Part shown: positions 13,838 through 30,700 of the stretch, in pieces
How positions within the stretch are numbered: the first letter of the stretch is position 1
Layout of the letters: every line of letters begins with the position of its first letter
Made by a program: the position numbers and the translations under genes
Assembly: GCA_023245335.1 (NCBI GenBank)
Contig: JAHFKK010000003.1
Span: forward strand, 1 to 45,694
Source of the DNA: Candidatus Gottesmanbacteria bacterium
Lineage (GTDB): Bacteria; Patescibacteriota; Microgenomatia; UBA10105; UBA927
Direction of reading: 5' to 3'
DNA length: 45,694 nt
Notes under the pieces: model-generated
What the model was told of the DNA's origin: nothing
What the model saw: the letters and a program-made list of their open reading frames with translations, nothing else
Databases searched by the model: none

Positions 13838-14143
13838 TCAACCGCCAATGTCTCTTTCGGAATACTCAACATAGTACCACCCGCCGCCCGTTATCTCACA
13901 ATATAGACCGTTATTGGCTCTGGTAGGCGGCGTCACATTTCGACCGCCGTATTGTGAAGCGCCCGGTACGGTCCAGCCCCCAATCTGCTTTCCGTTGTTG
14001 GCGGCCGTAGCCGAGTCAAAAATAGTTACCGTACAATTATTAGCCCCGTCAGTATGCACGGATACACCACATAGGGCGCACTTACGGGCAATGATGATGG
14101 CATTGTTATTTTGCCTTCCTGAACTTGTGCTAATGATAGACAT
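13838..14143 (-). CDS. Small Asn-rich beta protein, probably virion-associated
   Basis: Start MSIISTS; TVTIFDSATAA...ANNGLYCEITG motif; four NN/NNN runs. Confidence 0.65.
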   Translation of the reverse strand: MSIISTSSGRQNNNAIIIARKCALCGVSVHTDGANNCTVTIFDSATAANNGKQIGGWTVPGASQYGGRNVTPPTRANNGLYCEITGGGWYYVEYSERDIGG

Positions 14144-14147
14144 TTTC

Positions 14148-15083
14148 TTAACCCTCCACCCGATTGATAAATTGATAGTGTTCATAAGTCCTGCGTATCC
14201 CCGTAGGCAAAGATATGACCGGGGACCAGTTCAATTCTTTCTTCGCCCTCCCGATATCAGGAACCTTGCGGGCCTTGGCGTGAATAGCGGAAGTGGTGCG
14301 ATTGTTGCTCATGGTGCCATCCACCGAAATCACGCAAACCGAACCTCCTGGCTGCTCGTAGCAAATAGATGCCTGGGCGTGTAAGACACCAATCATGGTC
14401 ATCGCCAAACGTTCGATAGTGATTCCAACCGGGTCGCCAATCTCCACCACCCCCGAGACATCGGACAGCATGAGCAGAGTGAGTGCCTTTATGGCATCAT
14501 CGACGTAGCAGAACGAATCCATCTGCTGCCCGTCTCCCCAAACCGAAATCGGTTTACCGTCCCGAATGTTGCGGCAGAAAGTCGGAATTACCCGACTGTC
14601 ATCGGGGGCCATGCGAGGGCCGTAGATGTTCCCCATGCGTGCAATCTTGGCTCCCGCCGCTTGGCATAAGCGCTCACCTTCACGCTTACCGGCGATGTAG
14701 GTTGATTTGAACGAAAGTTCGTCACTGACCTTGATTGACGATGCAAACAGGAAGCGCGCACGATAGAACGCGGCCAAGTCGAGAAGCCATTCGGTGACGC
14801 GGGTATTGACATCCAACGTCATACCGGGGTGCTTGTAGGTTTCGGCTGGAGCGGTTGGGCTGGCAAAATGGAAAATGCCGTCCACCGGAATAGTCGGTAA
14901 GTCTCCACTGCACAGGTCGGACTCGATGAACTGGAACCGTGGGCAGTTCAGAAGGAACTCGATGTTTTCCTTCCGTCCGATAATACAGGAATCCATGCCG
15001 ATGACTTCATGCCCCTGCGCCAATAGGGTTTCACAGAGATGTGAACCTATAAAGCCACTTGCTCCGGTGACAAGAAATTTCAT
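14148..15083 (-). CDS. NAD-dependent epimerase/dehydratase, UDP-glucuronate decarboxylase (UXS)-like
   Basis: TGASGFIG, HFASP, YIAGK (YxxxK), NIYGPRM..DDSRVIPTF, GDGQQMDSFCYVDD. Confidence 0.9.
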   Translation of the reverse strand: MKFLVTGASGFIGSHLCETLLAQGHEVIGMDSCIIGRKENIEFLLNCPRFQFIESDLCSGDLPTIPVDGIFHFASPTAPAETYKHPGMTLDVNTRVTEWLLDLAAFYRARFLFASSIKVSDELSFKSTYIAGKREGERLCQAAGAKIARMGNIYGPRMAPDDSRVIPTFCRNIRDGKPISVWGDGQQMDSFCYVDDAIKALTLLMLSDVSGVVEIGDPVGITIERLAMTMIGVLHAQASICYEQPGGSVCVISVDGTMSNNRTTSAIHAKARKVPDIGRAKKELNWSPVISLPTGIRRTYEHYQFINRVEG

Positions 15084-16012
15084 GTTCCGAACCTTTCATT
15101 GATGGTTTCGAGGATTGACTTCTCCGGCCGCTCCATGCCCTGTCCATGTTTCATGTGGGCGGTCCAGGTGTTGCATTCGTTGATGATGAGAAACATGCCG
15201 TACTTCCCGGCGCAGCGATTGCGGTAATCGTAATCCTTGTACGCCGCCATTTTCGGCCATTCCGTGACCCGCGATAAATCGTGTATTTTGAACCGCTCCG
15301 GGTGTCGCACCTTGTCTTTCAGCATTTCGTAGTTGCCGGGGGAGATATCGTCGAAGTGCTGGACACTCGGACGTAGAGCAAGAGGGGCGGGCATACCGCA
15401 GCGCGGGCACCACTTCTCCATCTGCTCGATGTAGTCCTTTGGCGTCCGCATCCACCATTCAGGCTCTACCGTCCAGCCCTCACCCTCTCCCCACAGCATC
15501 GCCATATTGGCCGCCACTTCACAAAACCAAGCCCCGCGAAGGTTGATGGACGCACACCATGAGTTATGCACCCAACAGTTTTCAATCAGGTTCCACATTT
15601 TTCTGCGGTTCGGCTCCACTTCCTGAATCGCCACCAAGGAGGGCCAGTGATAAATGTCCGGCCGCTTATGGTCGTTAACGTAGACATGGTAGAACGTGTC
15701 GCAAATGCGTTGCGCATGGCGCTCGTAGCCCTTCGGAAGCGTAGTCCACAACCCAAGTTCGTGCGAAGTGCGCTTGCTTGCGGCATAGGCGCAAATCTCG
15801 TCGAAGTCGGGATGGAGCACCGGGTCTCCGCCCATAATGCCAGTGAAACTCGGATAACCGATTGTGGAATCAATGGCCCGCTTCACATCCTCAAGCGGCA
15901 TGAAATATTGGTCTTTGATTATGGCACAATAGCGTGTGCAGTTCCCGCATTTCTCGGGGCACTTATTGGTAATATCGATTTGGATTCCGTCCATTTGGCA
16001 AATACACTTCAA
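15080..16012 (-). CDS. Radical SAM enzyme
   Basis: CPEKCGNC (CxxxCxxC), MGGDP, C-terminal Cys cluster (CW..WC..FCE..CPRC); probable TTG start overlapping the upstream stop. Confidence 0.88.
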   Translation of the reverse strand: MKCICQMDGIQIDITNKCPEKCGNCTRYCAIIKDQYFMPLEDVKRAIDSTIGYPSFTGIMGGDPVLHPDFDEICAYAASKRTSHELGLWTTLPKGYERHAQRICDTFYHVYVNDHKRPDIYHWPSLVAIQEVEPNRRKMWNLIENCWVHNSWCASINLRGAWFCEVAANMAMLWGEGEGWTVEPEWWMRTPKDYIEQMEKWCPRCGMPAPLALRPSVQHFDDISPGNYEMLKDKVRHPERFKIHDLSRVTEWPKMAAYKDYDYRNRCAGKYGMFLIINECNTWTAHMKHGQGMERPEKSILETINERFGT

Positions 16013-16557
16013 ACTGAACCTTCCTTTCTCATGTCGTAGCTCCAAAGTGAGCCGTCATGTTTAACGTAATCCACTTTCATGTCCTGGAGGGCCGGCATAA
16101 CCCCGCCTTGATTAAGGTCGTGTCCGCACAGAATACACCGGCAAACCGGCATCCAGGCTTTCAGGTCGGCCAAAACACTTTCCCGGCCGTGGCATCCGTC
16201 GATGAATACCATATCAATCGATTTGGGAGCGAAGAAAGCGGCCGCCGCCGAGCTATCCATCCTGATAGGCACAAGATTTTTGAATTGCCCGACATTCCCC
16301 CAAAATTGAGCGAAAATATCCTGTGTCACGGCATCGGCGTGCGTCCCATTGATTTCGTCGGGAGAACCTTTCCAGGTATCCACGGCGAAAACAGGCCCCT
16401 TGCAACCGGACAAAAGCGCGGACGTGCTACGGCCTCTCCAGGAACCCACTTCGACCACCGACGCCATCTCAAGCGCAGTCGTGTAAAGCCAGTTCAATTC
16501 CTTTTCGTCCATCCAGCCGTCAATCGCCGGGTTGGGAATGATATAGGTTTCGCTCAT
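16009..16557 (-). CDS. Class I SAM-dependent methyltransferase (Methyltransf_24-like)
   Basis: IDGWM...VVEVGSWRGRST, AVDTW, DMVFIDGCH, LCGHD; start MSETYII. Confidence 0.9.
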   Translation of the reverse strand: MSETYIIPNPAIDGWMDEKELNWLYTTALEMASVVEVGSWRGRSTSALLSGCKGPVFAVDTWKGSPDEINGTHADAVTQDIFAQFWGNVGQFKNLVPIRMDSSAAAAFFAPKSIDMVFIDGCHGRESVLADLKAWMPVCRCILCGHDLNQGGVMPALQDMKVDYVKHDGSLWSYDMRKEGSV

Positions 16558-17252
16558 CCGGTCAACCCCCAACCTTTCAGGCAATCGGTTAATCTCACTA
16601 CTTTTTCCGCCGCAGAAATAGCATACAGGTGGTGCATCATGAAATTGGTTTCGTATCCGCATCGTTCCCGCAGTATTTCAACGGCTGTCGTGAACTTCAA
16701 ACCGTAGCGGGCTATATTGCGGCTCATCACATAGTCGTCTATAAGATCTGGCGATTTAACGCCCTGGATGGTCTCGCCGGCCGTCGGGAAGATGTTGGCA
16801 TAAGCCTCCTCCGGGGTCATGTCATCCAGTGGATGCCAGATATCGAGGCACCAATCGGAAGCGATGGTAAACCAGTTGCAGGACGAAATGTGTCGGCCGT
16901 CCCGCATGGTATAAATGTCTTCACGGTAGCGGTTCCCAATGATGTCTTTGCCGTTGTGCATCACCACATCTTTCGGCAGATAAGTCGTCATGTCCAGCAT
17001 GTCGGGGTGCACCAGTGCGTCCGAGTCGAGGTAAATGTTCCAGTCATTTTCATGCAGTTTTCCGAGTTCATAAATCTGGAATTTCTCGTAGCGCCCCGGA
17101 AGGTCCGGGAACTTGCGCTCGTTGATAACATGAAAATCCGCTCCAATCTTGTGAGCGTAGGCTTTGATAAACGGGAATGTGAGTTTAGTCACCTCCGGGG
17201 CATAGTTATCGATGCTGACCGTGTAAATGGTTTTCTTGACCTTTCGAGCCAC
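16554..17252 (-). CDS. GT-A fold glycosyltransferase-like protein
   Basis: YAHKIGADF, EKFQIY, IYLDSDALV (DxD) pattern of GT8/GT34-like enzymes. Confidence 0.7.
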   Translation of the reverse strand: MARKVKKTIYTVSIDNYAPEVTKLTFPFIKAYAHKIGADFHVINERKFPDLPGRYEKFQIYELGKLHENDWNIYLDSDALVHPDMLDMTTYLPKDVVMHNGKDIIGNRYREDIYTMRDGRHISSCNWFTIASDWCLDIWHPLDDMTPEEAYANIFPTAGETIQGVKSPDLIDDYVMSRNIARYGLKFTTAVEILRERCGYETNFMMHHLYAISAAEKVVRLTDCLKGWGLTG

Positions 17253-17269
17253 AAAACATCCTTTCTGCC

Positions 17270-20200
17270 CTATTGGGCGTTGAGAGAATCCTGCGCCAGA
17301 ATGTCCACCGTCTGGCGAATCACCGCGTCGGTTTCGTAAAGCTTCCGCAAACCCATGATTTTGGCCTCGCGGAGATGGTCACGGATCATGTCTATCTTTT
17401 CGTCCTTGTCCTTCAAGTCCTTGTAATCAGAGGAACGAACCAACTGATCCAGACTCGGCTTGAGCTTCGAGCCGGTGGAATCGAGCGGGGTGTCGTTCAT
17501 GTAGATGAGAAGTTTTTCGTACTGCGCCGGGTTGAGCTCGAATGGCTGCGGCTTGCCTCCCATGTCAGACGCAAACGATTGGTCATGCGCCGGCATGGGG
17601 AGTCCCCGCTTGAGATTGTACAATTCCTTGTCAATGGGAGAGTCCGTCCGCTTGCTGATATAGATAGGAGATATAGTCCGGTAAGCGGTCTGTAAATACG
17701 ACTCGCCCTTTTCGATTTCCTTGCTCAACGTCCGTCCCCACAAGTCGCGCTGCTTGGGGAGAGTGTCGGAAAGTCCAGGGATCTCGGAACGTATCGCGTC
17801 CATGACGGTATCGACAGACTTACGTTCAGGCGACATGATTTGTTCCACACCGCGCAGGGCCGATGAAAACGGCACCGATGTTTTAGCGACACTTTGCATA
17901 AGCTTTTCCATTTTGTTAACGTCGGCTTCGTAGGCGGCATTGATTCCTTGGCTGATGCCCTGCATGAATGTCTTGCTCATGTAGTTTTGTGAAGTGGAGG
18001 CCATAAATGCCGGGAAGATCTTGTCGGTTTCCGGGGCAAGCTTTGGGTCGGCAAGGCCCACAATCTCGGACGCATCGGCGGCCACTCCGAACACTGACGA
18101 AAACGGTTCCAGTCGCCCATACTCAACTACCGTGTCACCGACATTGAACGAATACGGTTTATGGCCGTCACGCAACCAAGCCTTCCTAACGTTCGGATCA
18201 CGCGGTCCGTACCCGTTGACCATCCCGGCCATAGTCATTCCGACCGCAGCACCCCACACCATCGTTCCTATGGCCTGTTTTGCAAGCGCCATGTCCCGCC
18301 GCGCACCCCCCGCCTCGAAGTCCTCCCGCATTGATTTCAGCGCAAACCCGAAACCAGGAGTGCGTTCGGTAGCGTAACGGAACACGTTGTAGGGAGTGCC
18401 AGTAAATGGCACCAGCATTTTCATGAAGGGATTTTGGGAGCCGCGAATCGCTTGAACGATAAGATTTTTGATAGGAGAAGTGAAAGTCAAATACCGGGCG
18501 TGTTCTTTGGCCCCCAGGTAGACATCCGGGGCGTGGGTTTGGGGATCGGATACGATTTCGGCCATCCGGTTGGACATGGCTTTCTTGACCATCTGTTCAT
18601 CGTTCATGCCCGAGACATCGATACCGGCTTTTTCCAAATATACCTTGGAAGCATCGGCTTGTCCATTAAATTCCTGCGTGGCTTTCCGCATGGACTGCGC
18701 GTTGAGTTCGGCCCGGTATGCCATCGCTTTGAAAGCGTCATCCTCGGCCATTAGGAAGCGCCCAGGCGTGCGAACGACTTCGCCCATGGCGTCTATGCCT
18801 TGCTTCAAGAAAGACCCTTCTGCGAACTCCTGCGGTGCCAATTTTCCGATTACCGGAATCTTTTTCAGGTTGGCCGCAACGTTCTCGGCGGTGATGGCTT
18901 TCCGTCCTATGCCCGACAACTCCAGCTTGCTCATCTGGTCTGACGGCTCCCCCGACACAATCCCGCGCCCAAGGATTCTAAAAAAGTCGGTGGACCCCTG
19001 CATCATGCCATAGGCGTAATACTGAGCTTCCTTAGTGTTTATCTCACCCGAGCCGATAGGCGATTTACTGATACCCGCCGCGATGTATCTCTCTCCGATA
19101 CTCATCACGTCGGTAATAAAGTTACTGGCTGTATTCGCCATGTGGGTGGTTGGAAGCCAGAGCATCCCGTTGATATAGGACTCATTCCACATATCCACGG
19201 TAGTGGCTTTCTTGGCCTGTTTCACGAACGCGGAAACTTTGCCGGGATTGTCCATCGTTGACAATCTATCGGCAATGAACTCTGGAGACACGCCGCCCGG
19301 AATGGCCTGCATGAAGTCTTTAAGTTGCCCCATGCGGAGGTCGGAAGACGCAGCTGTTTTACGGAATATTTGCAGGGCGCGCCCGGCTTCTGCGGCAATC
19401 CCGCTCATTTGCATCTGAATGGCGTAATGAACGTTGAATGCCCGCATGAACTCCATTTTTTGGAGGTCGTTTGCCATGCCACCGCGAACAGCATCGGCCA
19501 TACCTTTGAGGCTTGCAGCGGACGTTACCAGCATTTGACGGCCGGCTTCTATCTGCTCCGCATTGAACGACTGTCCCGCTTTACGTCCAAGTAGGTCAGT
19601 AATGCCGTATTTCTTGGCCGCTTCCTCCGTCATACCCCATGATTGCACCCCGCGCGCGGCAGTTTCCTTCTGTGCGGCAAACGTTTCCTGCGTGGAGGTA
19701 AGCAGGCGGTCAATGTCTTCGGGAGATTCTATGTCGCTCAAAAACTTCGGCTGAAGGTCTTCGCTCCAAATGCGTATATTACCGCCTGACTTCTCGCCGG
19801 CGTAGGATGTCGTGATATCGGGGTTGCGATTAGCGGTAAACTCGCCGGCTGCTTTTTTCATGTCGGGTGGCGTGGGAATACCGGACATGGTTTTTCGTAC
19901 CTGAGACACAGGCGCGTTGTTTATTTCGGTGTTGAGTTCCTCGGCCACCACTCGTTTCGTCAAATCGTCAATCTGCCCGACAGCCCCGACTTCATTCGCC
20001 AACAGCCCACGGAATAACTGCGTTTGAACTTTTATTTCTTCCGGCGACAGCACTTTGCCAACCATCGATGCCGCCTTCACAATCCCGCGTTCCAGAATCG
20101 GTTCAATCGTAGCCCCGCTGAACAGCCCCAACACCACCGCCGTGGGCAAGGCTAATTCAGGGATGCTTGCACCAACCACATCGGTCGCCATGCCAATCGG

Positions 20201-20737
20201 AACATCAGTCGCCATATTGACGATACCGGCCGCAGTTGCTCGTGCCAAAGACGGCATCAGCGTGTTCATGGAAGCCCGCGCTATGCTGGCACCGAATCCG
20301 GCGCCGAAAGCCTGTGTGGGGTCAATCATGGGCTGCTCAAGCCCCTGAGTCTCAGTTCCGATAGCAGCCTTTTCGCTTCCGGTAGTGTGCGCTGGAACGG
20401 TCTCGGTAAGGGTCGTAGGTGCAGGTTCCCCGTGGGCCGCCTGAGTGTTTTGACGGCCACGAAGACCCTGCACCATCGACTCCGCAAAGGTGCTCTCGGC
20501 CGCCTTTCCCTCAGCCGATTTTTTAGTCTGTTCTTTGCGGAAAGTTTCTTGCTCGGTTTGAATCGCTTGCTGCCGCACCAGTTCAGCGGCACGGTCGGAC
20601 TTAATCAATTCCTGCATGGCCGGGTGGTAAAACTCATGCGCGACTTGGCGGGATAGCAGATAGTTAGCAGTTTGGTCGTCGGTTTCGTCAGGCGCCAGTT
20701 GGTTATTTTCATCGAATTTAAGGTTGATTTCAGGCAT
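17270..20737 (-). CDS. Large internal virion / DNA ejection protein
   Basis: 1155 aa; helical; PFTGTPYN, YGRLEPF, RDLWG motifs typical of podovirus ejection proteins; synteny. Confidence 0.75.
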   Translation of the reverse strand: MPEINLKFDENNQLAPDETDDQTANYLLSRQVAHEFYHPAMQELIKSDRAAELVRQQAIQTEQETFRKEQTKKSAEGKAAESTFAESMVQGLRGRQNTQAAHGEPAPTTLTETVPAHTTGSEKAAIGTETQGLEQPMIDPTQAFGAGFGASIARASMNTLMPSLARATAAGIVNMATDVPIGMATDVVGASIPELALPTAVVLGLFSGATIEPILERGIVKAASMVGKVLSPEEIKVQTQLFRGLLANEVGAVGQIDDLTKRVVAEELNTEINNAPVSQVRKTMSGIPTPPDMKKAAGEFTANRNPDITTSYAGEKSGGNIRIWSEDLQPKFLSDIESPEDIDRLLTSTQETFAAQKETAARGVQSWGMTEEAAKKYGITDLLGRKAGQSFNAEQIEAGRQMLVTSAASLKGMADAVRGGMANDLQKMEFMRAFNVHYAIQMQMSGIAAEAGRALQIFRKTAASSDLRMGQLKDFMQAIPGGVSPEFIADRLSTMDNPGKVSAFVKQAKKATTVDMWNESYINGMLWLPTTHMANTASNFITDVMSIGERYIAAGISKSPIGSGEINTKEAQYYAYGMMQGSTDFFRILGRGIVSGEPSDQMSKLELSGIGRKAITAENVAANLKKIPVIGKLAPQEFAEGSFLKQGIDAMGEVVRTPGRFLMAEDDAFKAMAYRAELNAQSMRKATQEFNGQADASKVYLEKAGIDVSGMNDEQMVKKAMSNRMAEIVSDPQTHAPDVYLGAKEHARYLTFTSPIKNLIVQAIRGSQNPFMKMLVPFTGTPYNVFRYATERTPGFGFALKSMREDFEAGGARRDMALAKQAIGTMVWGAAVGMTMAGMVNGYGPRDPNVRKAWLRDGHKPYSFNVGDTVVEYGRLEPFSSVFGVAADASEIVGLADPKLAPETDKIFPAFMASTSQNYMSKTFMQGISQGINAAYEADVNKMEKLMQSVAKTSVPFSSALRGVEQIMSPERKSVDTVMDAIRSEIPGLSDTLPKQRDLWGRTLSKEIEKGESYLQTAYRTISPIYISKRTDSPIDKELYNLKRGLPMPAHDQSFASDMGGKPQPFELNPAQYEKLLIYMNDTPLDSTGSKLKPSLDQLVRSSDYKDLKDKDEKIDMIRDHLREAKIMGLRKLYETDAVIRQTVDILAQDSLNAQ

Positions 20738-20760
20738 GTTTTATCCTATGCTATCAGGCA

Positions 20761-22667: not shown

Positions 22668-22679
22668 AATAAATTATCC

Positions 22680-24122
22680 CTATAGGTTCGCAATCACTTT
22701 CATTGCATGAGCCACCAAAGTAAGCACTTCGTCGTCGTCTTTGCGGATTCTCCAATAAGCATCGACCGGGCGTGTTACCTGGGCAATCCCGCCGCCTTCT
22801 TCCGGCAGGGTAACACCGGCAAACCCGCCAATTATCGCTCCACCCACTGGGTCGTGAATGAGGGAATTGACGCCGCCGCCAAACACGGGTATGGCTTCAC
22901 CGCCGAGTATCACGCCGCCGTTCGGTTCCGAAACCGTCCCGATGGCGTAATCGTCCGCAGCTCGAATCACGGCCCCACCAGAACCAGTGAATTGCAGCGA
23001 CCGCGTGAAAGCGATTACGGCACTGCCTCCTGAAACAACCCCCCCGGTGGGTTCGTGCTTTATACCCGCTGCCGCTACAGCGTCACCGCCTAAAACAACT
23101 CCACCGGAACCGGTAAACGAATATGTCTGTACCCCGCCAAGCGTCACATTGGCCGCGCCATTCAATACCGCCCCGCCCTGTGGAGCCGATTTTACTCCAG
23201 AGGTGTGGGCAGTTACCCCACCGGCGACCTCGCCGCCAGATCCTATCATCCGCCGCCCGGATACCGTGGACGATTGGCCTCCCGAGACCAGGCCCCCAGC
23301 AGCAGAATAGCGCCTGCCATATTTGGCCGGCATGCCACCGCCTGAAACCAATCCTCCGGAAGGAGATAGTATTCTGCCAGCCTTGCGGGCAGCAGTTCCG
23401 CCTGCTACCGTCCCGCCCAACACGGACCTTTTAATCCCATATTTTTTAGATGCTGAACCCCCGGCGACCTCGCCGCCGGAGCCGGTTAAACTAAAGCTGT
23501 TGCCTGCCGATTGTTTGATCGCTGCGGCGACTATGACGTGAGTGTCGGTATTGTCGCCTGCCACATCGATTGTGAACGCGCCTGCCGTGGCCGCCGCCCT
23601 ATCGACAACCACCCACACATCTAATTCGTTGACTCTTATTATCCCGGTGCCGTTGCTGAAGGTGGTTGTGCCGGTTTGGTTGAAAACCAGGCCAATAATT
23701 AGTTCGTTATTTTCCGTGGTGCTGTCGGACCCCGAGGTATAAGGGGTTGCCGTGTCGGTTGCCAATGTCGGGGTGTAATTCGTATCGACAGCGGAGGCTG
23801 TGGCAACTCCTGAATATTGCGCTACTCCAACAAATAAATCAGTGGTGGCAAGCCCGTATGTAATCGTCACAACATTAGAGGCGTTGCCGGTAACTCCGAA
23901 AGCGGCCCAACATTCAACCCAGTTTTGAGGACCAGCCCATTTGCCACCGATTTTAGAATAACTGTTACTTGCGGTATCCGAAACTCCCGTAATGTCATTG
24001 TTTAGACTTGTGCAGGTAAAAACGATTATGCAATTACCGGCAGTTGCCGAAATCGCGTCACAGGCGAGCGATATGCCTGCTGCGCTGTATTTAGATTCTG
24101 CATTTACGAACGCGATTGCCAT
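22680..24122 (-). CDS. Virion structural protein with an N-terminal beta domain and Gly-rich GGxVxGG repeats
   Basis: MAIAFVN..AGNCIIV..VSDTASNSY; many GGxVxGG repeats. Confidence 0.6.
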   Translation of the reverse strand: MAIAFVNAESKYSAAGISLACDAISATAGNCIIVFTCTSLNNDITGVSDTASNSYSKIGGKWAGPQNWVECWAAFGVTGNASNVVTITYGLATTDLFVGVAQYSGVATASAVDTNYTPTLATDTATPYTSGSDSTTENNELIIGLVFNQTGTTTFSNGTGIIRVNELDVWVVVDRAAATAGAFTIDVAGDNTDTHVIVAAAIKQSAGNSFSLTGSGGEVAGGSASKKYGIKRSVLGGTVAGGTAARKAGRILSPSGGLVSGGGMPAKYGRRYSAAGGLVSGGQSSTVSGRRMIGSGGEVAGGVTAHTSGVKSAPQGGAVLNGAANVTLGGVQTYSFTGSGGVVLGGDAVAAAGIKHEPTGGVVSGGSAVIAFTRSLQFTGSGGAVIRAADDYAIGTVSEPNGGVILGGEAIPVFGGGVNSLIHDPVGGAIIGGFAGVTLPEEGGGIAQVTRPVDAYWRIRKDDDEVLTLVAHAMKVIANL

Positions 24123-24132
24123 ACTTTCTGCC

Positions 24133-24543
24133 CTATGCCGGGGTGCCGTTGCTCATCTGAATACGGGGTGTGATTTTTATCGTATCCCCGTTATTGGACG
24201 GAGTGAAGCTGGTGCCGAACCGCTCCCCCCAAATCGCCGCGTTGTTGGCGTCGGTGACGAAGTACCCGAACACGGTCGCGTTGGCGGTCAGATTTGAATT
24301 GAACGTGTAGGTCTGCTCGTTCTGAGTGGATTCGCTGATGTTCCCGTTCAAAGCTGTGGTCCACGAGTTTTTATCCAGCGTGATTGCAGCGTAGTTACCG
24401 CCAGCGGCGTCGGTGAACATGTTGTTAAGCGAAGTCACCACCGGCGTGTAGTTGTTGGTGAAAAGCCGCAGCGTAAGATTCCCGCTGCCCAAATACGAAA
24501 TGAGTGTTTTGTTCGCGCCCAACTGCGTGTAACAGAGTGCCAT
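24133..24543 (-). CDS. Conserved small virion protein, very Asn-rich
   Basis: LRLFTNNYTP...GGNYAAITL...GYFVTD...WGERF...GDTIKITP. Confidence 0.7.
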   Translation of the reverse strand: MALCYTQLGANKTLISYLGSGNLTLRLFTNNYTPVVTSLNNMFTDAAGGNYAAITLDKNSWTTALNGNISESTQNEQTYTFNSNLTANATVFGYFVTDANNAAIWGERFGTSFTPSNNGDTIKITPRIQMSNGTPA

Positions 24544-24558
24544 GTCTTTGCCTCCCGG

Positions 24559-24957
24559 TTAGATTTGCTCGATAGTGACTTTTTGAATCAGTTTTGTCTG
24601 GAAGTTGCGGTCTATTTTCATTTCAAAATTGCGCGGTTTGCGAAGTTCTTCAAGAATAGCCGTGGTGGTGGTTTCGTACCGCTTTGAAACTTCCGTCAAG
24701 GCGCGATTGAACGAAGTTGTCTGCTGGTTATGAAGTGCCTGTAATGCGTCAACCACCGGCTTGCTGTTATCGGGAACGTCAAATTTCAATGCTTCTATAT
24801 TGGCAGAAATCTCTCGCGCCACCGCCACCATTTCGGACTTGGCCGACTCGATGAAACGATTCATGATGGCGGGCTGTTCCTTCACCACCCGCATAAGTTC
24901 AGGGAACCGCTTCTCGATTGCATCCAGGAAAATCAATGCTGCGTCTCCGCTATTCAT
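24559..24957 (-). CDS. Hypothetical protein
   Basis: ORF with AGGTGA RBS in the tail operon. Confidence 0.6.
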   Translation of the reverse strand: MNSGDAALIFLDAIEKRFPELMRVVKEQPAIMNRFIESAKSEMVAVAREISANIEALKFDVPDNSKPVVDALQALHNQQTTSFNRALTEVSKRYETTTTAILEELRKPRNFEMKIDRNFQTKLIQKVTIEQI

Positions 24958-24966
24958 GCGTCACCT

Positions 24967-25458
24967 TTATTCACCTGTCCACATTTTTGATGTGCGTCCT
25001 GTTGAATCGAACCATCCCGATCTGGCCCCTCCTGCCACCATACTGGTATTAAGTATTGATCCAAACCCACGCTGATATAATCCCGCCGCCACCCCGTAAC
25101 CTTGAGCCCTTGCCATTGTGCCCGCGTTTTGCAGGCGCAGCTGTTCAATTCCGCCCGCCGAACGCAGAATGGCTATATCGATTTCACCCTGGATGTCGGT
25201 ATCTATTTCAAGCTCCTGAGGAGTTCCTGCCTGCGCGAAACCGCTTGCCGCAGTCTGCGCCCGCTGTGCCGACTTAACCTGCCCGATATTGCGCTGGAGC
25301 TTGGCAACACTGATTTCAGAAGCCGCCTTCTCGTAATCCGCCTGATACCTCAGCACGTCCTGCTGGTACTTGCTCTGCTTTATCGACTGATACGCCCCGA
25401 AAGCAGACCCCCCGGATTGCATCGCGGTTCCGGCCAGCATAATCAACATGGGCCACAT
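24967..25458 (-). CDS. Internal virion protein (T7 gp14-like position)
   Basis: Gly/Ala-rich N-terminus, QRAQTAASG..GTP motif; follows tail tube B. Confidence 0.75.
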   Translation of the reverse strand: MWPMLIMLAGTAMQSGGSAFGAYQSIKQSKYQQDVLRYQADYEKAASEISVAKLQRNIGQVKSAQRAQTAASGFAQAGTPQELEIDTDIQGEIDIAILRSAGGIEQLRLQNAGTMARAQGYGVAAGLYQRGFGSILNTSMVAGGARSGWFDSTGRTSKMWTGE

Positions 25459-25460
25459 AG

Positions 25461-27170
25461 CTATTCCACCTCAATATCCGTTCCTATCGCATCGATATTC
25501 ATCGGGAACGGGTCGGATTGACGAATGAACACGGTTTTCTCGGTTGATGCGCTGTTGGCCCCCTCGCGGCGAGAGAGGTTCACCACGGGCCCGTCCGTGA
25601 AAGCATTGTTGTTGAACATGGGCGTAAGATAGGTACTGTCGGGGCCGTAACTGCCACCGGCACTTGTGCGACAACGGAGCTGCACATTCGTAATTCGTTT
25701 GGTCTTGAACATCTTGTCACCGCTCGGAAGCTCCGGGGATACCGGCATGGTTTCCAGGTCGGAGACATAGGCCAGACCTGCCCGCGCTTTAATGGACGAT
25801 GGAATCGTAATGCTGTTGTTGGCTACGGTGGCGTTCCCCGCCACACCCCCGGCAACATACTGCACCACTTCATTGTTCAGGTGCGGCAACGGGATGGAAG
25901 TGAAAGCGTTATTGTTGCTTGCCAGAATATGAGAATCCATGAAATCGGAATCGTTCCAGGCTTTGGTGGAAAACGACGCCATGCGCTCGATGTAGGTACA
26001 GACGTTGCCGTTGATGGTGCGATTGATAGCCGCCCACAACTCGGTTTCGTAGGTGCCGGGGATGGTCGCAACCGATATCACAGTGCCACTCGTATGCCTT
26101 GACCAAGCGACTACCTTGTGCTCCTGCATGTAAGTCAGCGCAAGCAGCGCCCCATCGTTCCGCAGACACCAAAGAATCTCGAATGGGTTCTGCTGGTAGG
26201 CAAGTTGGGTAATAAGTTTACCGTCGAACAGGTGGTCAGACAGAACAGACAACTCACCGCTCTTGTAATCTCCCAACTCGTTCGGGCTTAGTTCCCGCAT
26301 CTTGGTGGCCGGGTGCCCGGCGTGGATGATGGTGTCGCCGAGCTTTGCGGGCATGGGTTCGGACGTGCCGAAATACGAAAGCTTATCGGCTCGCTTGTTC
26401 GTCGGAGACAGGGCCGCAGTGCTCCCGGTTGCCGCCGCAATCGACCAAGCCCCGGAATCAGCACCGACCAACAGCGCCTTTGCACTTGCCAGCCAGAAAA
26501 TGATATCGCTGGTTCCCGACAACAGGTTCAGAGCCAAGCCGTCGCTGTCGTTGGTTCCGGTCGTCATGTTGTTGTACGACCCGACGTTGCTCAGCCAGAG
26601 CCTTGATGGGAACGCCGTGGATGATGCGAAACATAGCCGGTCCTGATAAAATGCGCAGGTGCGGGGATAGCCGTTATTGTTGCCCCATTCTGAAGGGGCA
26701 TTGTTGAAGCTAACGTTCCCGACCGTCCAGTTGTTGTGCGCGGTGCGTGTAATCTGTCGCGGAAAATAGTTCTGGTGCGTAACGAAAAGCGTGTCATAGC
26801 TCTGCGTGTATTGGAGATACGGTAAGTCTGCTGCCAGAAACGGGGTGGCCAACTCATAAGGGTTGTTGTTGGCGTCCAGAACGATACCACCATCCTTGAA
26901 CACCCGCATGGTGCCATTCTGATGCTCCAACATATACGCCTGCGTTTGAGAAAACTGGAAAGGTACAAGGCGTGTCGTGACGTTGTTGCTCTTGGCGCTG
27001 GTGATATACTCAAAGCCCGGACGACGCTGGACACCGCCTTGAGGGAGAGGCACAAAATTCAGCATGGTCTTGCAGCCGCTCTTGTGCTTGTCGATGTCCG
27101 TGCGAGCGTAGACCTTGGGAGACAGTTCGCCTGCATTGAACACGTTTTTGACTGTGCTGATCGTGCCCAC
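25461..27170 (-). CDS. Tail tubular protein B / nozzle
   Basis: FNAGELSP, PQGGVQRRPG, GYPRTCAFYQDRL, AWSRH, YIERM. Confidence 0.88.
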   Translation of the reverse strand: MGTISTVKNVFNAGELSPKVYARTDIDKHKSGCKTMLNFVPLPQGGVQRRPGFEYITSAKSNNVTTRLVPFQFSQTQAYMLEHQNGTMRVFKDGGIVLDANNNPYELATPFLAADLPYLQYTQSYDTLFVTHQNYFPRQITRTAHNNWTVGNVSFNNAPSEWGNNNGYPRTCAFYQDRLCFASSTAFPSRLWLSNVGSYNNMTTGTNDSDGLALNLLSGTSDIIFWLASAKALLVGADSGAWSIAAATGSTAALSPTNKRADKLSYFGTSEPMPAKLGDTIIHAGHPATKMRELSPNELGDYKSGELSVLSDHLFDGKLITQLAYQQNPFEILWCLRNDGALLALTYMQEHKVVAWSRHTSGTVISVATIPGTYETELWAAINRTINGNVCTYIERMASFSTKAWNDSDFMDSHILASNNNAFTSIPLPHLNNEVVQYVAGGVAGNATVANNSITIPSSIKARAGLAYVSDLETMPVSPELPSGDKMFKTKRITNVQLRCRTSAGGSYGPDSTYLTPMFNNNAFTDGPVVNLSRREGANSASTEKTVFIRQSDPFPMNIDAIGTDIEVE

Positions 27171-28079
27171 TTATTCCCATCCTCCGGCACTCAGAGTAGG
27201 TGAAGTGTCACGAACGATATGCGCCACGTCCAACTGCGCCCCGTCGTTCTTCTTGCCCTCGGACAACACCTGCGCGTACCAGGCCGCCATGTCTTTCATG
27301 GAAGACGACTGCTTCTGCAACGGGGCGGCAAGCTCCATCGCAATCCGTGCGGCCCAGGCGCGAGCGAAGTGGTTAGGCATTTCAGAAACCAGGGTCACGT
27401 TAGCCACATACTGCAAAACGGCAAACTGCACCGGGCACAGAATCCTTCGACTGTTGCCGCTTCCCACAACTTCCCACTGAGATCCGGGAGGGACAAGCGA
27501 AATCGGTCTAAGCATATCGTCGGGAGCCTCGTAAACATACCCGTTTTGGTAGTCTGAAATGGCCTCGAACCGTATTACCTGCCCCCCGGACGTGTAGGCG
27601 TCGAACTTCCGCCCATCCAACTGGTAGCACTCGAAAGTATTGGCGTCCTTATTCGCCACACGGACGATCATCCCGTTTATCTGCGTCATGCCTGAAACGA
27701 TGTCGACTTTAACCAGCCAGCCGTTTTCGAACCCATGGGAAGCCGCCGTAACAACCACCGGGTCGGCTGCGGTGATACCCGTAATCGCCACGGCATCGGC
27801 AAGGGCTTCATCGGTCCCGGCCGCCAGGTTCAACTGCACCTCGCGTTGGGCAAACTGCCATGAGTGGTCTTCCATGACCGCCATGCGCGCCGTGTCATAA
27901 ACCACGTTGCAGAGAACCTCTTCCTTTGTGCTGCCCGTGGTAATGGTCGCCACATCGGAAAGCGAATCAGGGTCGGCCCCCAGCCATGTCATGGCAAGTT
28001 TGCAAACCGCCAGTTCAGTCGAAAGTCCAGAACCGGCCGCTGTGATAATCCCCGCACTGGAAGCCCAATACACCGGCAT
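27171..28079 (-). CDS. Tail tubular protein A with an inserted E1-FCCH-like domain
   Basis: VCKLAMTWLG, HSWQFA, YEAPDDMLR, AARIAMELA; insert ITGITAADPVVVT..HG...GMTQING...AYTSGG. Confidence 0.82.
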   Translation of the reverse strand: MPVYWASSAGIITAAGSGLSTELAVCKLAMTWLGADPDSLSDVATITTGSTKEEVLCNVVYDTARMAVMEDHSWQFAQREVQLNLAAGTDEALADAVAITGITAADPVVVTAASHGFENGWLVKVDIVSGMTQINGMIVRVANKDANTFECYQLDGRKFDAYTSGGQVIRFEAISDYQNGYVYEAPDDMLRPISLVPPGSQWEVVGSGNSRRILCPVQFAVLQYVANVTLVSEMPNHFARAWAARIAMELAAPLQKQSSSMKDMAAWYAQVLSEGKKNDGAQLDVAHIVRDTSPTLSAGGWE

Positions 28080-28090
28080 GTTGAAAACTC

Positions 28091-29611
28091 CTAAATGTTA
28101 TTAGTAATGATCCTGGTTGACGAGGTGGAACCCATGTTATTTGTAGAGGCCGAATCACCGTCCACGAAATCGTTCCCTGTGATTATGATATTGGTAGAGT
28201 TCAGGGCGTTTGAAATACCGTACTTGTGCTGGCTGCCGATGCGGTTATTGGTGATATTTACATGGTCGTGCGCGAGGCTGTTCAACTCAATACCGGCGTA
28301 GGTATTGGCGTTCTTGAGACCACCTCTAAGGCTTTGGCAGCCTTGAATCAAAAGGTTGGTGACTACTGCATTAAAGTTAGCAAATCTCTGCCGTAAGTCA
28401 CGGGCCGAAACATTTCTGAGTTCTATCCCGTCAATTCCTCCCGAACCTGAATTTTCCACTAAAATACCGTCCGTGTCACCGCTTCCAACCGTGTCGTATA
28501 TCTTCAGCCCATTTACATAAACCCCGTTGATAACGGCCGTCCCGCTGATGTTTATTCTGAGAGCCGCCACAAGCGGACGGTCGAACGCACACCCGTTCAG
28601 GAAGATGTTGGCAACCGAGCCTGCCGCATGCACAATCTCAAATGAATTGTCGTGTGTCTCGATGGTGGTTTCCGAATCCAGCCACAAGCCGTCGAATGCG
28701 TAGGGAAGCTTTATCCCCCGAGTATTATTACCGGCTGTCCCGTTGATTCTGCAATGCTCAAGAAAGAGGGACGCCTGATTGGTGCAGATGATTCCGTCCC
28801 CGGTGCCTTGACCATGAAAGTTTCTGAGAGTACAGTCTGACGTTTCCAGGGGATATGCCGCCGACCCGTAGGCCAACAGGTTGAACGCCGCCGATACCGA
28901 AACATTTTCCAAGCAACATCTTGCGAGATTGCGACCGAAAGCGAACGTATTCCCAGCGTTTCTTGTTCCTATATGGACAATCCCCATGCCACGCATTCCG
29001 GTATCTTCGACAAGGGAAGCGGTCCCGCCAAAAGTGACAATGGCATCTGTATTGAACGTCGGGCAAAGGATCGCAGATTTTGGGCCGTCTCCCACGAGCA
29101 CAACACCGCTTTTCTCAATCGTAAGCCCTGAGTCGATCCGATATCCGGCGACCGATTTAGGGAAGTAGACAAATCCGCAGTTGGCGGCTTCTGCCGCGTC
29201 TATGGCCGCCTGAATAGCCGCCTGGTCGTTGGTGTTGCTCGGGCCGTCGCCCACGGCCCCGAAATCAGTTACCGAAAATATCTCCTTCGACTTTGCAAGC
29301 ATTGTGCGAGAGACAGCCCCGGTCCCAGCCTGAACGAACGAAATGGCGCCCGAGGTGGCGGTTGTTCCGAACACCCCCCCAAACGACATAAGAATCCAGC
29401 GCTTGTCGCCCGCGTTGCTGTCGGGTGAAATGACGGCCGGTGAGCTTTCCGCAGCAGCACTCGTAGCGTTGCAGCGGTAGACGAACACTCCGGTATTGGT
29501 CGTGACCACCGCCCAATCGCCGTCTTTAATCAGCGATCCATCCAGCGAATCGAGAGCACCGTCACCGCCGCCGGTGAGCAAAATGTAGGGATAGGCGTAA
29601 TAATTAGTCAT
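28091..29611 (-). CDS. Tailspike with a pectate-lyase-like beta-helix
   Basis: SVTDFGAVGDG..NDQAAIQAAIDA..VYFP; Asn-ladder repeats. Confidence 0.82.
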   Translation of the reverse strand: MTNYYAYPYILLTGGGDGALDSLDGSLIKDGDWAVVTTNTGVFVYRCNATSAAAESSPAVISPDSNAGDKRWILMSFGGVFGTTATSGAISFVQAGTGAVSRTMLAKSKEIFSVTDFGAVGDGPSNTNDQAAIQAAIDAAEAANCGFVYFPKSVAGYRIDSGLTIEKSGVVLVGDGPKSAILCPTFNTDAIVTFGGTASLVEDTGMRGMGIVHIGTRNAGNTFAFGRNLARCCLENVSVSAAFNLLAYGSAAYPLETSDCTLRNFHGQGTGDGIICTNQASLFLEHCRINGTAGNNTRGIKLPYAFDGLWLDSETTIETHDNSFEIVHAAGSVANIFLNGCAFDRPLVAALRINISGTAVINGVYVNGLKIYDTVGSGDTDGILVENSGSGGIDGIELRNVSARDLRQRFANFNAVVTNLLIQGCQSLRGGLKNANTYAGIELNSLAHDHVNITNNRIGSQHKYGISNALNSTNIIITGNDFVDGDSASTNNMGSTSSTRIITNNI

Positions 29612-29623
29612 AATTTCATCCCG

Positions 29624-29986
29624 TTAGGCTTCCTTGGCCGGGCGCCCCGGTCCACGTTTTTCGGTGCGTACCTCGGCGTTCTCGCGTTGTTTGAGTGCCG
29701 CCCAAATCCGCTTGCGGTTCCAGTCCTTCGGGATGTCTCCCATGAACTTCGACAAGCCTTCGACCAACATTGCCGTGGTGCGCGGGTCGTCGGCCGCAGA
29801 GTAGATCGTGCGTGACGCCTTAACCTGCGTCCGCATGAAGTCTTCATAGTCCTCAGCCGCGATAAAATACTCGGGTTGCGGAACGTATCCGCTATCCAGC
29901 CAAAGCACCGGGAAGAACTCGCCTTTCTTGAAGCGCTTATTGTAGGCGAAACACTCCTTGAAACATCTGAACTTCTTCGTAGCCAT
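29624..29986 (-). CDS. Hypothetical virion-module protein
   Basis: ORF with AAGGAG RBS, C-terminal GPGRP. Confidence 0.6.
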   Translation of the reverse strand: MATKKFRCFKECFAYNKRFKKGEFFPVLWLDSGYVPQPEYFIAAEDYEDFMRTQVKASRTIYSAADDPRTTAMLVEGLSKFMGDIPKDWNRKRIWAALKQRENAEVRTEKRGPGRPAKEA

Positions 29987-30023
29987 CGGTGGCTCCTTTC
30001 AGGTAGGTGTGGGGTATTCCGTT

Positions 30024-30209
30024 TTAGGTGCCGTCCACTAAAGTTACCGTCAGCGTGTCGTTGCTGGCAAGCGTGGTGGCCGCCTTGTTAATGCAGATTT
30101 CGCCCTGCACGTTGTTGCTCGTAATGTCGTATCGATACATCAAATCCTTTTTGATGACCTTTTTCGGACCTGATTTCCGTTTGGTGGCGGTGACTGCATA
30201 ATTCGTCAT
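30024..30209 (-). CDS. Small hypothetical virion-module protein
   Basis: AAGGAG RBS; 61 aa. Confidence 0.55.
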   Translation of the reverse strand: MTNYAVTATKRKSGPKKVIKKDLMYRYDITSNNVQGEICINKAATTLASNDTLTVTLVDGT

Positions 30210-30262
30210 GGTTCACGCTCCTTGAGAGAGCCGGGAGGCTGTCACACCCCCCGGCGTTGAAG

Positions 30263-30700
30263 TTAATCGGTCAGAAGGCCCTTATCCGCCGTCAGGAAGG
30301 CGTTGACGTTACCGGCCGCGATGTTACCTGAACCGACCACCACCACCCCCAGGTAGGCCGCCCGCTTGGTGCCTACGGGAACCGGTGCACGATGAATGGT
30401 CCCGGCCGCCTCGTTCGCCGCGATGTTCACACTGACGAGGTTGTTACCTGAAGTCAGCGTGTTGGTGGAATGAGTCGCCAGATAAACAACGGCCGACATG
30501 GCCGCCGTAAGCGCCGTGGTGACTTCCACCACGAAGGTGGAGCCTCCGATTTCGGCTGCGGTGTTCGCGTTGTTGCCGGGGAAGCACAGTTTGTTGGTTG
30601 CCGCGTTCGCCTTGTAGTTGGTCGTTCCGCGGGTCAGGGTGTTGTTGTTGCCGATGATGCTGGTCGCATCGCAAAACTCAAGTTCGTATTGAACAGTCAT
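30263..30700 (-). CDS. Capsid cement/decoration protein (BPP-1 Bbp16-like), Asn-rich
   Basis: Follows the major capsid gene; VEVTTAL...YLGV.V.GSGNIAAGNVNAFL; start MTVQYEL. Confidence 0.7.
   Translation of the reverse strand: MTVQYELEFCDATSIIGNNNTLTRGTTNYKANAATNKLCFPGNNANTAAEIGGSTFVVEVTTALTAAMSAVVYLATHSTNTLTSGNNLVSVNIAANEAAGTIHRAPVPVGTKRAAYLGVVVVGSGNIAAGNVNAFLTADKGLLTD

Follow-up and report, generated by a model that had tools for sequence, protein, structure and literature searches.

Asparagine-rich virion proteins encoded beside a predicted sugar-modification cassette in an uncultured podophage genome

Several virion proteins encoded by a 45,694-nucleotide stretch of DNA (contig JAHFKK010000003.1 of the Candidatus Gottesmanbacteria assembly GCA_023245335.1), the whole of which is referred to here as the window, are rich in asparagine (Asn, N). 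Next to the structural genes of a tailed phage the window carries a cassette of four genes, which are predicted to encode a soluble GT-A glycosyltransferase (GT), an S-adenosylmethionine (SAM)-dependent methyltransferase (MT), a radical SAM enzyme and an NAD-dependent sugar-nucleotide short-chain dehydrogenase/reductase (SDR). An initial annotation of the window had proposed that runs of Asn (NN or NNN, termed NN runs below) and N-x-S/T sequons on exposed virion proteins form an acceptor code for this cassette. Asn-rich proteins encoded beside a sugar-transferase gene suggest, but do not prove, that the virion is coated with sugar.

Structural module and sugar cassette

The window is the entire contig C22 of genome bin G000 (1.55 Mb, 25 contigs), and its bases 1-25 are identical to bases 45670-45694. 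The contig thus most likely represents a complete phage genome of ~45.67 kb that assembled as a circle, rather than an integrated prophage, and the binning of this circular contig is a poor guide to the host. All genes of the structural module and the cassette, like the other phage genes considered, are encoded on the minus strand (Table 1). The order of the nozzle (tube B), tube A and an HK97-type major capsid protein (MCP) followed by a Bbp16-type cement gene agrees with NC_005357 (BPP-1), and judged by its genes the window is a complete BPP-1-like podophage genome. The AlphaFold2 (AF2) model of tube B, with a predicted local distance difference test score (pLDDT) of 80.7, matches podophage nozzles, among them Carin-1 (8ck1_A, E 4e-40, TMq 0.86) and T7 gp12. 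Proteins that resemble the cement protein by language-model similarity carry PF21190 (Bbp16, score 0.95), and look-alikes of the protein of 136 amino acids (aa) carry PF23140 (Gp80); both are leads only and do not test the assignment. The 136-aa protein has no match in Pfam or PHROG. No family match was found in Pfam, NCBIfam or PHROG for the 101-aa protein, a homologue of which, 38-39% identical, lies within the structural modules of two other phage loci (L008 and L009).

By sequence, the GT has no match in Pfam, NCBIfam, PHROGs or among the PDB sequences. A Foldseek search of the PDB with its model gave 225 matches with E <= 0.001, and the top listed are all GT-A enzymes (A64R, B3GNT2, COLGALT1, GTA/GTB, LgtC, XXT1). 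The best is A64R of the chlorovirus PBCV-1 (2p73/2p6w; E 2e-7, TM-score 0.51-0.58, 14-15% identity), which is described as "involved in the glycosylation of the major capsid". D76 and D78 of a DSD motif (LDSDA) are invariant in 30 homologues of 55-80% identity. On its model the cassette GT is thus a predicted glycosyltransferase of GT-A fold with a DxD motif, its donor and acceptor being assigned only indirectly.

The longest open reading frame (ORF) of the MT overlaps the GT gene by 109 bases (16554-16662). Its start is more likely an internal ATG at 16557, which would give a 182-aa product that begins at the GT stop codon. The best match of the radical SAM enzyme among the PDB sequences is 7wzv (E 1e-3), a code that no paper in the literature searched mentions, while the SDR is closest to UDP-glucuronate decarboxylase, also called UDP-xylose synthase (UXS; human UXS1 4gll and 2b69, E 5e-40). 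With maximum 19-residue hydropathies of 0.60 (GT), 1.14 (MT), 0.82 (radical SAM enzyme) and 1.51 (SDR), all four enzymes lack a hydrophobic segment that could serve as a signal peptide or membrane segment. N-glycosylation of the oligosaccharyltransferase (OST) type was considered and rejected, as no member of the STT3 family was found in G000 or the window: PF02516 is without a match in G000 (98% complete), four archaeal control genomes do match, and none of the scanned proteins of the window has an STT3-type domain.

Just downstream of the cassette follow five genes that all start signal-peptide-like (KD19 1.7-2.4 at residues 1-4), and some of them are beta-helix-like. The cassette of a relative, locus L183, shows the same arrangement of signal-peptide-like genes downstream. 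Such starts are unusual for tail fibres, which are assembled in the cytoplasm.

Table 1. Features of the window, listed from the terminase gene to the genes downstream of the cassette. Sequons are N-x-S/T motifs.
Feature	Coordinates	Strand	Assignment	Length, Asn content, NN runs and sequons
Terminase large subunit (TerL)	35406..36731	-	phrog_2 match; control	441 aa, 14 Asn (3.2%), 0 NN runs, 1 sequon
Portal	32689..34392	-	phrog_332 match; control	567 aa, 20 Asn (3.5%), 1 NN run, 2 sequons
MCP	30736..31701	-	phrog_212 match, E 2e-56	7.2% Asn
Cement/decoration protein (Bbp16-like)	30263..30700	-	directly after the MCP gene	145 aa, 17 Asn (11.7%), 3 NN runs, 1 sequon
Tailspike-like protein	28091..29611	-	PF12708, E 2e-15; pectate-lyase-type beta-helix	8.5% Asn
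Tube A	27171-28079	-	phrog_394 match; inserted E1_FCCH-type domain (PF16190, E 4e-9)	
Tube B (nozzle)	25461..27170	-	phrog_376, E 3e-152	569 aa, 46 Asn (8.1%), 10 NN runs (4 NNN), 11 sequons
136-aa virion-module protein	24133..24543	-		136 aa, 19 Asn (14%), 4 NN runs, 7 sequons
480-aa protein	22680-24122	-	no family match; C-terminal half of Gly-rich repeats, SGG..V.GG type	480 aa
Internal virion proteins, 1155 aa and 586 aa	17270..22667	-	1155-aa protein matches phrog_6651; controls	1155 aa, 42 Asn (3.6%), 2 NN runs, 2 sequons; 586 aa, 25 Asn (4.3%), 1 NN run, 2 sequons
GT (soluble GT-A glycosyltransferase, predicted)	16554..17252	-	no Pfam family; AF2 pLDDT 94.6, pTM 0.91	
MT (SAM-dependent methyltransferase, predicted)	16009..16662	-	PF13578 (Methyltransf_24), E 1e-15	
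Radical SAM enzyme (predicted)	15080..16045	-	PF04055, E 2e-6, 28.8 bits, just under the 29.5-bit cut-off; CxxxCxxC motif present	
NAD-dependent sugar-nucleotide SDR (predicted)	14148..15083	-	PF01370, E 2e-37	
101-aa protein	13838..14143	-	directly downstream of the cassette	101 aa, 10 Asn (9.9%), 4 NN runs, 2 sequons
Five signal-peptide-like genes	13612-13809, 12656-13609, 11537-12646, 9552-11549, 9123-9542			

Asparagine content of the virion proteins

When counted by script, the Asn residues, NN runs and sequons of tube B, the cement protein, the 136-aa protein and the 101-aa protein all reproduced the hand counts of the initial annotation, as did the contrast with the few NN runs of TerL, the portal and the two internal proteins (Table 1). 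In the cement protein the runs read GNNNT, GNNA and GNNL. Clustering and sequons were evaluated with 2000 shuffles per protein. NN runs go beyond what the protein's own composition would give in tube B (10 vs 3.3 expected, with 0 of the 2000 shuffles reaching 10) and in the 101-aa protein (4 vs 0.84 expected, p = 0.001), whereas in the 136-aa and cement proteins they are no more numerous than the Asn content predicts (p = 0.12 and 0.22, respectively). Taken over the Asn-rich proteins of the window, N-x-T is enriched 1.42-fold (z 2.1) and N-x-S is at 1.0-fold.

The tube B of the window was compared with 156 homologues of <50% identity, taken from viral, metagenome and genome contigs. These distant proteins contain 4.2% Asn on average, and their Asn falls as the GC content rises (r = -0.70); the regression predicts 4.1% Asn at a GC of 0.51, with a residual standard deviation (SD) of 0.91. 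In the window and seven relatives with tube B proteins of 55-76% identity, together termed the N-rich clade, Asn makes up 6.9-9.2% of the residues and NN runs number 1.4-2.3 per 100 aa, the latter compared with at most 0.93 per 100 aa in the distant set. Expressed in residual SDs, the Asn content of the clade exceeds the GC prediction by 3 to 5.5. The MCP of the window has an Asn residual of +3.1 over the GC expectation. Among 120 listed homologues from a protein collection, tube B proteins of 51-82% identity contain 6.2-10.4% Asn, with the exceptions of P0030, P0037 and P0042 at 2.8-4.0%, and the more distant of the 120 have 1.8-6.0%. Several distant tube B homologues also carry an E1_FCCH-type domain, as found in tube A, or a LamG-type insertion (PF13385).

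A bias towards AT as the cause of this pattern was ruled out by the GC regression, the GC content of the genes, the Lys content and the preference for AAC codons, which bears out the statement of the initial annotation that base composition does not explain it. Lys, Ile, Phe and Tyr are not raised in the N-rich proteins. The AAC/AAT counts are 35/11 in tube B, 17/0 in the cement protein and 15/4 in the 136-aa protein, so that the use of mostly AAC holds for these three and fails for the 101-aa protein (4/6).

In the tree of tube B, P0030, P0037 and P0042 (the N-poor trio) form the sister group of the whole N-rich clade. At 39 alignment columns with an Asn consensus, the 117 cells of the trio are filled by 24 N, 23 G, 17 D, 13 A, 11 S and 9 T. 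The statement of the initial annotation that homologues have Gly/Ser/Glu turns at some of the runs agrees with the alignment: opposite PHLNNE the three sisters show HLEGE/HLEGC, and opposite VANNSIT they show VSGGEIT, VDSNQIV and VSGGQIT. The NN pairs at positions 101-102, 146-147, 165-166 and 521-522 are retained in 82-100% of 28 N-rich homologues with 51-82% identity. According to the DSSP states of the tube B model, coil accounts for 47% of the protein and for 29 of the 46 Asn residues; six NN runs consist of coil throughout, two do so in part and two lie in strands, exposure being judged here by secondary structure alone. The net charge per 100 aa is -0.7 to -1.4 in N-rich and -2.5 to -3.0 in N-poor tube B proteins, and their Thr contents are alike (8.45 vs 8.69%).

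Other virion proteins were followed through syntenic loci. The cement protein contains 8.5-12.6% Asn in the N-rich clade compared with 3.5-5.8% in loci L009-L012, and the 136-aa protein has homologues in L002 and L022 with 12.1-14.0% Asn, the positions of which are conserved. TerL, the portal, the scaffold, a 163-aa protein and the two internal proteins have an ordinary Asn content on both sides, the internal-protein orthologues of L004, L022 and L009 being similar to each other. By comparison with homologues, the nozzle, the cement protein and the 136-aa and 101-aa proteins have gained about twice the normal Asn, while the MCP shifted less. As far as sequence and predicted structure indicate, the shift is specific to exposed, solvent-facing virion proteins, with Asn mostly replacing Gly, Asp, Ala, Ser and Thr in turns. 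Locus L003, a close relative, carries tandem cement genes (570-995 and 1051-1467) with products 59% and 43% identical to that of the window.

For a comparison with annotated phages, five relatives were used, four of them cultured and one an uncultured assembly (BPP-1, vir555, RpY1, YeP5 and Vibrio phage 1.021.C). None of the five is among the matches of a GT search against a phage collection. Their tube B proteins contain 3.1-5.3% Asn with 0-3 NN runs, and the protein adjoining the MCP has 2.1-4.2% Asn and no NN run in four of them, no such gene being listed for YeP5. The initial annotation had suggested asking whether orthologues from phages without the cassette are equally rich in NN; they are not, as both the 156 distant tube B loci and the five annotated relatives are ordinary in Asn, and the proposal withstands this check.

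Asparagine-rich genes around the glycosyltransferase

Within the phage group of the window, three genomes of the N-rich clade extend as far as the cassette site, namely the window, L004 and L022, and all three carry the GT. For another eight N-rich tube B entries, the source and the length of the longest contig equal those of a GT or radical SAM entry (20296, 38717, 33289, 44594, 40956, 9762, 31676 and 28927 bp), which is a weak proxy for linkage and no proof of it. By contrast, the 156 distant tube B loci are all without the GT, even the 39 that extend at least 8 kb to either side. In the syntenic relative L009 the internal-protein gene is followed directly by genes of the fibre region, with no cassette between them. 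The N-poor trio and the N-rich subclade members with long contigs stem from ENA or Logan assemblies, and none of them turned up among the viral, metagenome and genome contigs on which this scoring is based.

For a view beyond this group, 80 viral loci with the GT were fetched (of 244 GT-positive IMG/VR stretches), most of which have unrelated structural genes, and ORFs were called mechanically on one strand. An Asn residual above +4 is reached by 7.1% of the 972 ORFs in the 78 GT loci outside the clade and by 1.1% of the 1610 ORFs in GT-free loci (odds ratio, OR, 7.2; p 3e-16). Counted by locus and with the clade included, at least one such ORF is found in 47 of 81 GT loci and in 21 of 175 GT-free loci. 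A regression on the GC of each gene itself gave the same enrichment, and the Asn-rich ORFs are slightly richer in GC than their loci. The Asn-rich ORFs also lie close to the GT: ORFs with a residual above +3 make up 27% of those within 1.5 kb upstream of the GT and 3% of those 6-11 kb upstream. The immediate upstream neighbour of the GT is Asn-rich in 27 of 76 loci (43 families); among 446 ORFs at distances above 3 kb the share is 6.7% (OR 7.6, p 2e-10). Ten GT-adjacent Asn-rich ORFs were scanned for families; six have a match, which is of virion type in four (Gly_rich_2/tail-fibre families in three, the virion structural protein phrog_3758 in one), while the remaining two match a family of unknown function and, weakly (E ~4e-4), tail-fibre/structural families. 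Judged by these sequence comparisons, the GT is linked both statistically and positionally with Asn-rich virion-type proteins in many phages. Asn-rich ORFs are equally frequent in GT loci with and without a detectable radical SAM or MT gene. Two GT-adjacent Asn-rich proteins gave no match in a tblastn search of cultured phages, and a family-based control with the Gly_rich_2 fibre proteins adjoining the GT, whose sequence is of low complexity, for that reason returned one locus. In the unrelated GT locus L214, a relative of the window's 480-aa protein (35% identity) is encoded 4.6 kb upstream of the GT.

In a different podophage lineage (L201 and L210) the GT lies inside the structural module, and the protein after the MCP has 12.1-12.6% Asn and five NN runs; in L210 the value is 10.2% if a longer ORF start is used. 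In the 40 loci whose MCP belongs to this family, the Asn residual of the protein encoded next is +7 to +9 in the four GT loci, +4.4 to +7.7 in four clade loci that count neither as GT loci nor as GT-free loci, and -2.8 to +3.7 in the 32 others.

The local context of Asn was examined in the Asn-rich ORFs of the GT loci outside the clade, which form 67 single-linkage families, and in 25 families from GT-free loci, each compared with a shuffled expectation. In the GT families, A-N is above expectation in 51 of 67 (ratio 1.66, sign test p 2e-5) and N-x-T in 47 of 67 (ratio 1.33, p 0.0013), T-N is depleted (0.66) and NN is at 1.54. The corresponding ratios in the GT-free families are 0.80 for A-N, 0.71 for N-x-T and 0.82 for NN, and the two sets differ in Mann-Whitney U tests (A-N p 3e-5, N-x-T p 9e-4, T-N p 2e-3, NN p 0.026). 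The pattern has a direction. Ala is found 293 times at position -1 of Asn where 184 are expected, and 186 times (184 expected) at +1; with an expectation of 153 throughout, Thr is found 201 times at +2, 152 times at -2 and 99 times at -1. Because of this directionality, patchy composition does not explain the context. Asp is not enriched at -2 (93 vs 91.7 expected), and the ORFs of ordinary Asn content in the same GT loci do not show the pattern. In the window's own clade, NN is enriched 1.65-fold (z 5.4), N-x-T 1.46-fold (z 3.7) and [AG]-N-x-T 1.66-fold (z 2.4).

The GT itself belongs to a large family. A word-indexed search gave 1222 matches of 50-80% identity, of which 120 were listed, so that absence from the list is not evidence; an exhaustive search gave 809 representative clusters. 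In 50,697 deposited phage records there is a single match, an uncultured marine virus (34% identity). Of ten long GT homologues, seven are fused to TylF/Methyltransf_24 domains, two contain inteins and two have extra GT8 and GT9 domains; P0289 and P0310 are the ones interrupted by intein/LAGLIDADG homing-endonuclease domains. In 61 viral GT loci with at least 2.5 kb of downstream sequence, a radical SAM gene is found within 4 kb in 29, an MT gene in 17 and an SDR gene in nine. The GT was not found in 100 relatives of G000. Genomes of the same genus measure only 0.8-1.4 Mb, and the 16S rRNA gene of the bin (G000 C12:1037236-1039054, locus L005) holds a group I intron (RF00028, 73.5 bits).

Possible role of the asparagine-rich turns and relation to known systems

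The reading that we prefer, although we hold it tentatively, is that the Asn-rich turns are acceptor or recognition sites for a glycan that a mobile cassette makes in the cytoplasm, and that the virion is glycan-coated. In such a system the soluble GT-A transferase would add sugar to virion proteins in the cytoplasm, before or during assembly. The UXS-like SDR would supply a pentose donor, the TylF-type MT would O-methylate the sugar, and the radical SAM enzyme is proposed to modify the sugar or its nucleotide donor. The GT, in places together with further GT domains, would build a small, partly O-methylated glycan that possibly contains a pentose. Asn is the presumed acceptor atom, and the virion would leave the cell with its glycan coat.

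The selection for surface Asn acceptor sites and the glycan coat envisaged in the initial annotation are supported in part, by the Asn excess, the comparison of orthologues and the other lineages, while the acceptor chemistry is only inferred. Of the proposed NN and N-x-S/T acceptor code, the Asn-rich turns, N-x-T and, for the clade, NN were retained. Since enrichment is lacking for N-x-S, NN is at its strongest in the clade of the window only and no OST-type enzyme was found in G000 or the scanned window proteins, the code is restated here as Asn-rich turns with a preference for A/N-N-x-T. Our best current guess for the context, derived from the sequences, would be (A/N/G)-N-x-T or N-N in a turn and not the classical N-x-S/T.

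A wider proposal, which we regard as possible and rather unlikely, is that hundreds of uncultured tailed phages carry a mobile cytoplasmic module that glycosylates Asn in (A/N)-N-x-T or N-N turns, and that their surface proteins, such as cement, nozzle, fibre-like and further structural proteins, have repeatedly evolved Asn-rich loops in order to be coated. With similar doubt, the core of that module would be an undescribed GT-A family, often accompanied by a radical SAM enzyme, a TylF-type MT and a UXS-like SDR, and the module would be the phage counterpart of chlorovirus capsid N-glycosylation, its sequence code being legible in the genomes by themselves.

A number of observations weigh against the turns being acceptor sites. 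As read from the tree, the Asn shift of tube B is a single evolutionary event that has been kept since, and the association of tube B with the cassette hence counts only once. In the GT-bearing loci L201, L210 and L218 the tube B proteins have only 5.3-5.5% Asn, and 34 of the 81 GT loci are without a strongly Asn-rich ORF. A probable counter-example is the N-poor tube B P0056 (3.2% Asn, 0 NN runs): it agrees with P0264, a radical SAM protein 65% identical to that of the clade member L183, in its sources, in the number of members and in the length of its longest contig (10610 bp), and thus probably shares a contig with a cassette radical SAM gene, although its DNA was not found among the viral contigs. 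The sequons give little support. They are not beyond composition in any single protein of the window (11 vs 7.7 expected in tube B, p = 0.12; 7 vs 4.1 in the 136-aa protein, p = 0.075), in the cement protein they number 1 vs 3.1 expected (p = 0.98), and the sequon Asn residues of tube B are barely better conserved than its other Asn residues (0.70 vs 0.61). N-x-S is at 1.08 in the GT families, which is not significant, and is not enriched in the window or the clade either. The fibre and beta-helix proteins of the cassette-free BPP-1, RpY1 and Vibrio phage reach 8-11.4% Asn. Because Asn-rich fibres occur in phages without the cassette, the tailspike and fibres of the window are not diagnostic, and the enrichment near the GT may in part be due to fibre genes lying next to it. 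All GT-free control loci come from podophages of the tube-B type, a less varied set than the GT loci. Finally, the GT is 50-80% identical across diverse phages, far more conserved than any virion protein, which would also fit a conserved acceptor outside the virion.

The strongest alternative, in our view a serious if doubtful one, takes the Asn-rich turns as a structural or adhesive adaptation of the surface, in the form of neutral polar turns in place of Asp and Gly or of glycan-binding or hydrogen-bonding surfaces, with no chemical connection to the cassette. The cassette would then modify something else, such as glycans of the host envelope or secreted downstream proteins, and would merely tend to be inserted beside surface genes in phages of similar kinds. 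The replacement of Gly, Asp, Ala and Ser by Asn at hairpin turns, where Asn is intrinsically favoured, is in line with such an adaptation, and so are the less negative net charge of the N-rich tube B proteins and the Asn-rich fibres of cassette-free phages. The probable co-occurrence of the N-poor P0056 with a radical SAM gene and the strong conservation of the GT relative to the virion proteins point the same way. The five signal-peptide-like genes downstream of the cassette, with their equivalents in L183, also fit, as their products could be secreted and represent alternative targets. However, an adaptation of this kind leaves unexplained why the directional A-N/N-x-T context and the depletion of T-N are confined to GT loci, why an Asn-rich cement-type protein occurs in two unrelated GT lineages and in 0 of 32 GT-free loci, and why Asn-rich ORFs peak within 1.5 kb of the GT.

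It is less probable that the cassette glycosylates virion proteins on Thr or another residue, the Asn-rich, Ala-preceded turns being a recognition context or spacers. The GT9 family, domains of which are present in two long GT homologues in heptosyltransferase-like form, includes protein O-heptosyltransferases, and the residue enriched at +2 is Thr and not Ser. The only virion glycosylation of tailed phages found cited, in PMC12619734, is likewise in its favour; there the glycans sit on C-terminal ends of capsid and tail-tube subunits in Mycobacterium phages. Yet the residue that rises in the virion proteins is Asn, the Thr content being equal in N-rich and N-poor tube B, and the MCP and cement protein are without Ser/Thr-rich C-terminal tails.

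Modification of Asn by the radical SAM enzyme and the MT in some other way, such as N-methylation, epimerisation as in proteusins or Lys-Asn isopeptide cross-links, appears very improbable. The maturation of proteusins does combine radical SAM enzymes with an Asn N-methyltransferase, and the gene that most often accompanies the GT encodes a radical SAM enzyme. Against this, Asn-rich ORFs do not become rarer where no radical SAM or MT gene is detectable, the MT resembles the sugar O-methyltransferases of the TylF family and occurs fused to the GT in homologues, and the UXS-like SDR and the GT8/GT9 fusions point to sugar chemistry. Composition, drift, mutational bias or an artefact of counting by hand are effectively refuted: tube B Asn does fall with GC, but the clade stands far above that regression, Lys, Ile, Phe and Tyr are not raised, AAC is preferred, the non-exposed proteins of the same genomes are unaffected, and the NN positions are conserved over the 28 sequences.

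If the link between the cassette and the Asn-rich virion proteins is true, a GT family of 809 representative clusters with essentially no cultured member gains a function, and glycan-coated virions become predictable from sequence, by an Asn excess beside the GT combined with the A/N-N-x-T context. A glycan coat would matter for the stability of the phage, its adsorption, immune recognition and the escape from surface defences of the host. Should the link fail, one would still have to explain why Asn has doubled in surface turns, in a conserved manner and in this lineage specifically. In the literature searched, neither this cassette nor Asn-linked glycosylation of the virions of tailed phages is reported. 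Virion glycosylation encoded by the virus is already known from chloroviruses and, more recently, mycobacteriophages; it is the Asn-directed version in tailed phages that was not found there.

Among known systems, BPP-1 (Rauchvirus) shares with the window the order of MCP, cement protein (bbp16), tube A, tube B, internal proteins and fibres, with a tube B of 31% identity. It differs in having no match in the GT search, in a tube B with 4.4% Asn and in a cement protein with 3.6% Asn and 0 NN runs. Prokaryotic Asn-linked glycosylation, by HMW1C-type N-glycosyltransferases (NGT) or by the OSTs PglB and AglB, uses an N-x-S/T context. The 1.3-1.5-fold enrichment of N-x-T found here would resemble this context in part; unlike in the OST systems, however, there is no STT3 in G000 or the scanned window proteins, and neither N-x-S nor an acidic residue at -2, which belongs to the bacterial form of the context, is enriched. 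HMW1C/NGT enzymes belong to GT41 and are of GT-B type, whereas the GT of the window is of GT-A type and is neither a GT41 nor a GT-C enzyme; no separate search of the window or G000 for GT41 was made.

The virion glycans of mycobacteriophages are reportedly O-linked. Phage-encoded glycosyltransferases decorate their capsid and tail proteins (Freeman et al. 2023, as cited in PMC12619734), and PMC12619734 places the glycans at the C-termini of capsid and tail-tube subunits. In the window, by contrast, the MCP and the cement protein end without Ser/Thr-rich tails and the Asn residues lie in internal turns.

In the chlorovirus PBCV-1, the glycosyltransferases are encoded by the virus, soluble and of GT-A type, and the best PDB match of the window GT is domain 1 of A64R. 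The A064R protein has a C-terminal MT domain; here the MT gene adjoins the GT gene, and seven of the ten long homologues are GT-MT fusions. According to PMC5408694, the Asn acceptors of PBCV-1 lie outside the N-x-S/T sequon and the glycan core contains xylose; the window cassette has a UXS-like SDR. There are differences as well. PBCV-1 is a eukaryotic giant virus and not a tailed phage, and its likeness to the window GT is at the level of the fold only. It glycosylates four specific Asn residues on one protein, whereas a proteome-wide rise of Asn in turns is seen here. No radical SAM enzyme is described for PBCV-1 in the passages of PMC5408694 consulted, while the window cassette has one, and glycosylation is demonstrated in PBCV-1, whereas here it is predicted from genes. 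By analogy, the chlorovirus system would be the nearest working model for the cassette of the window.

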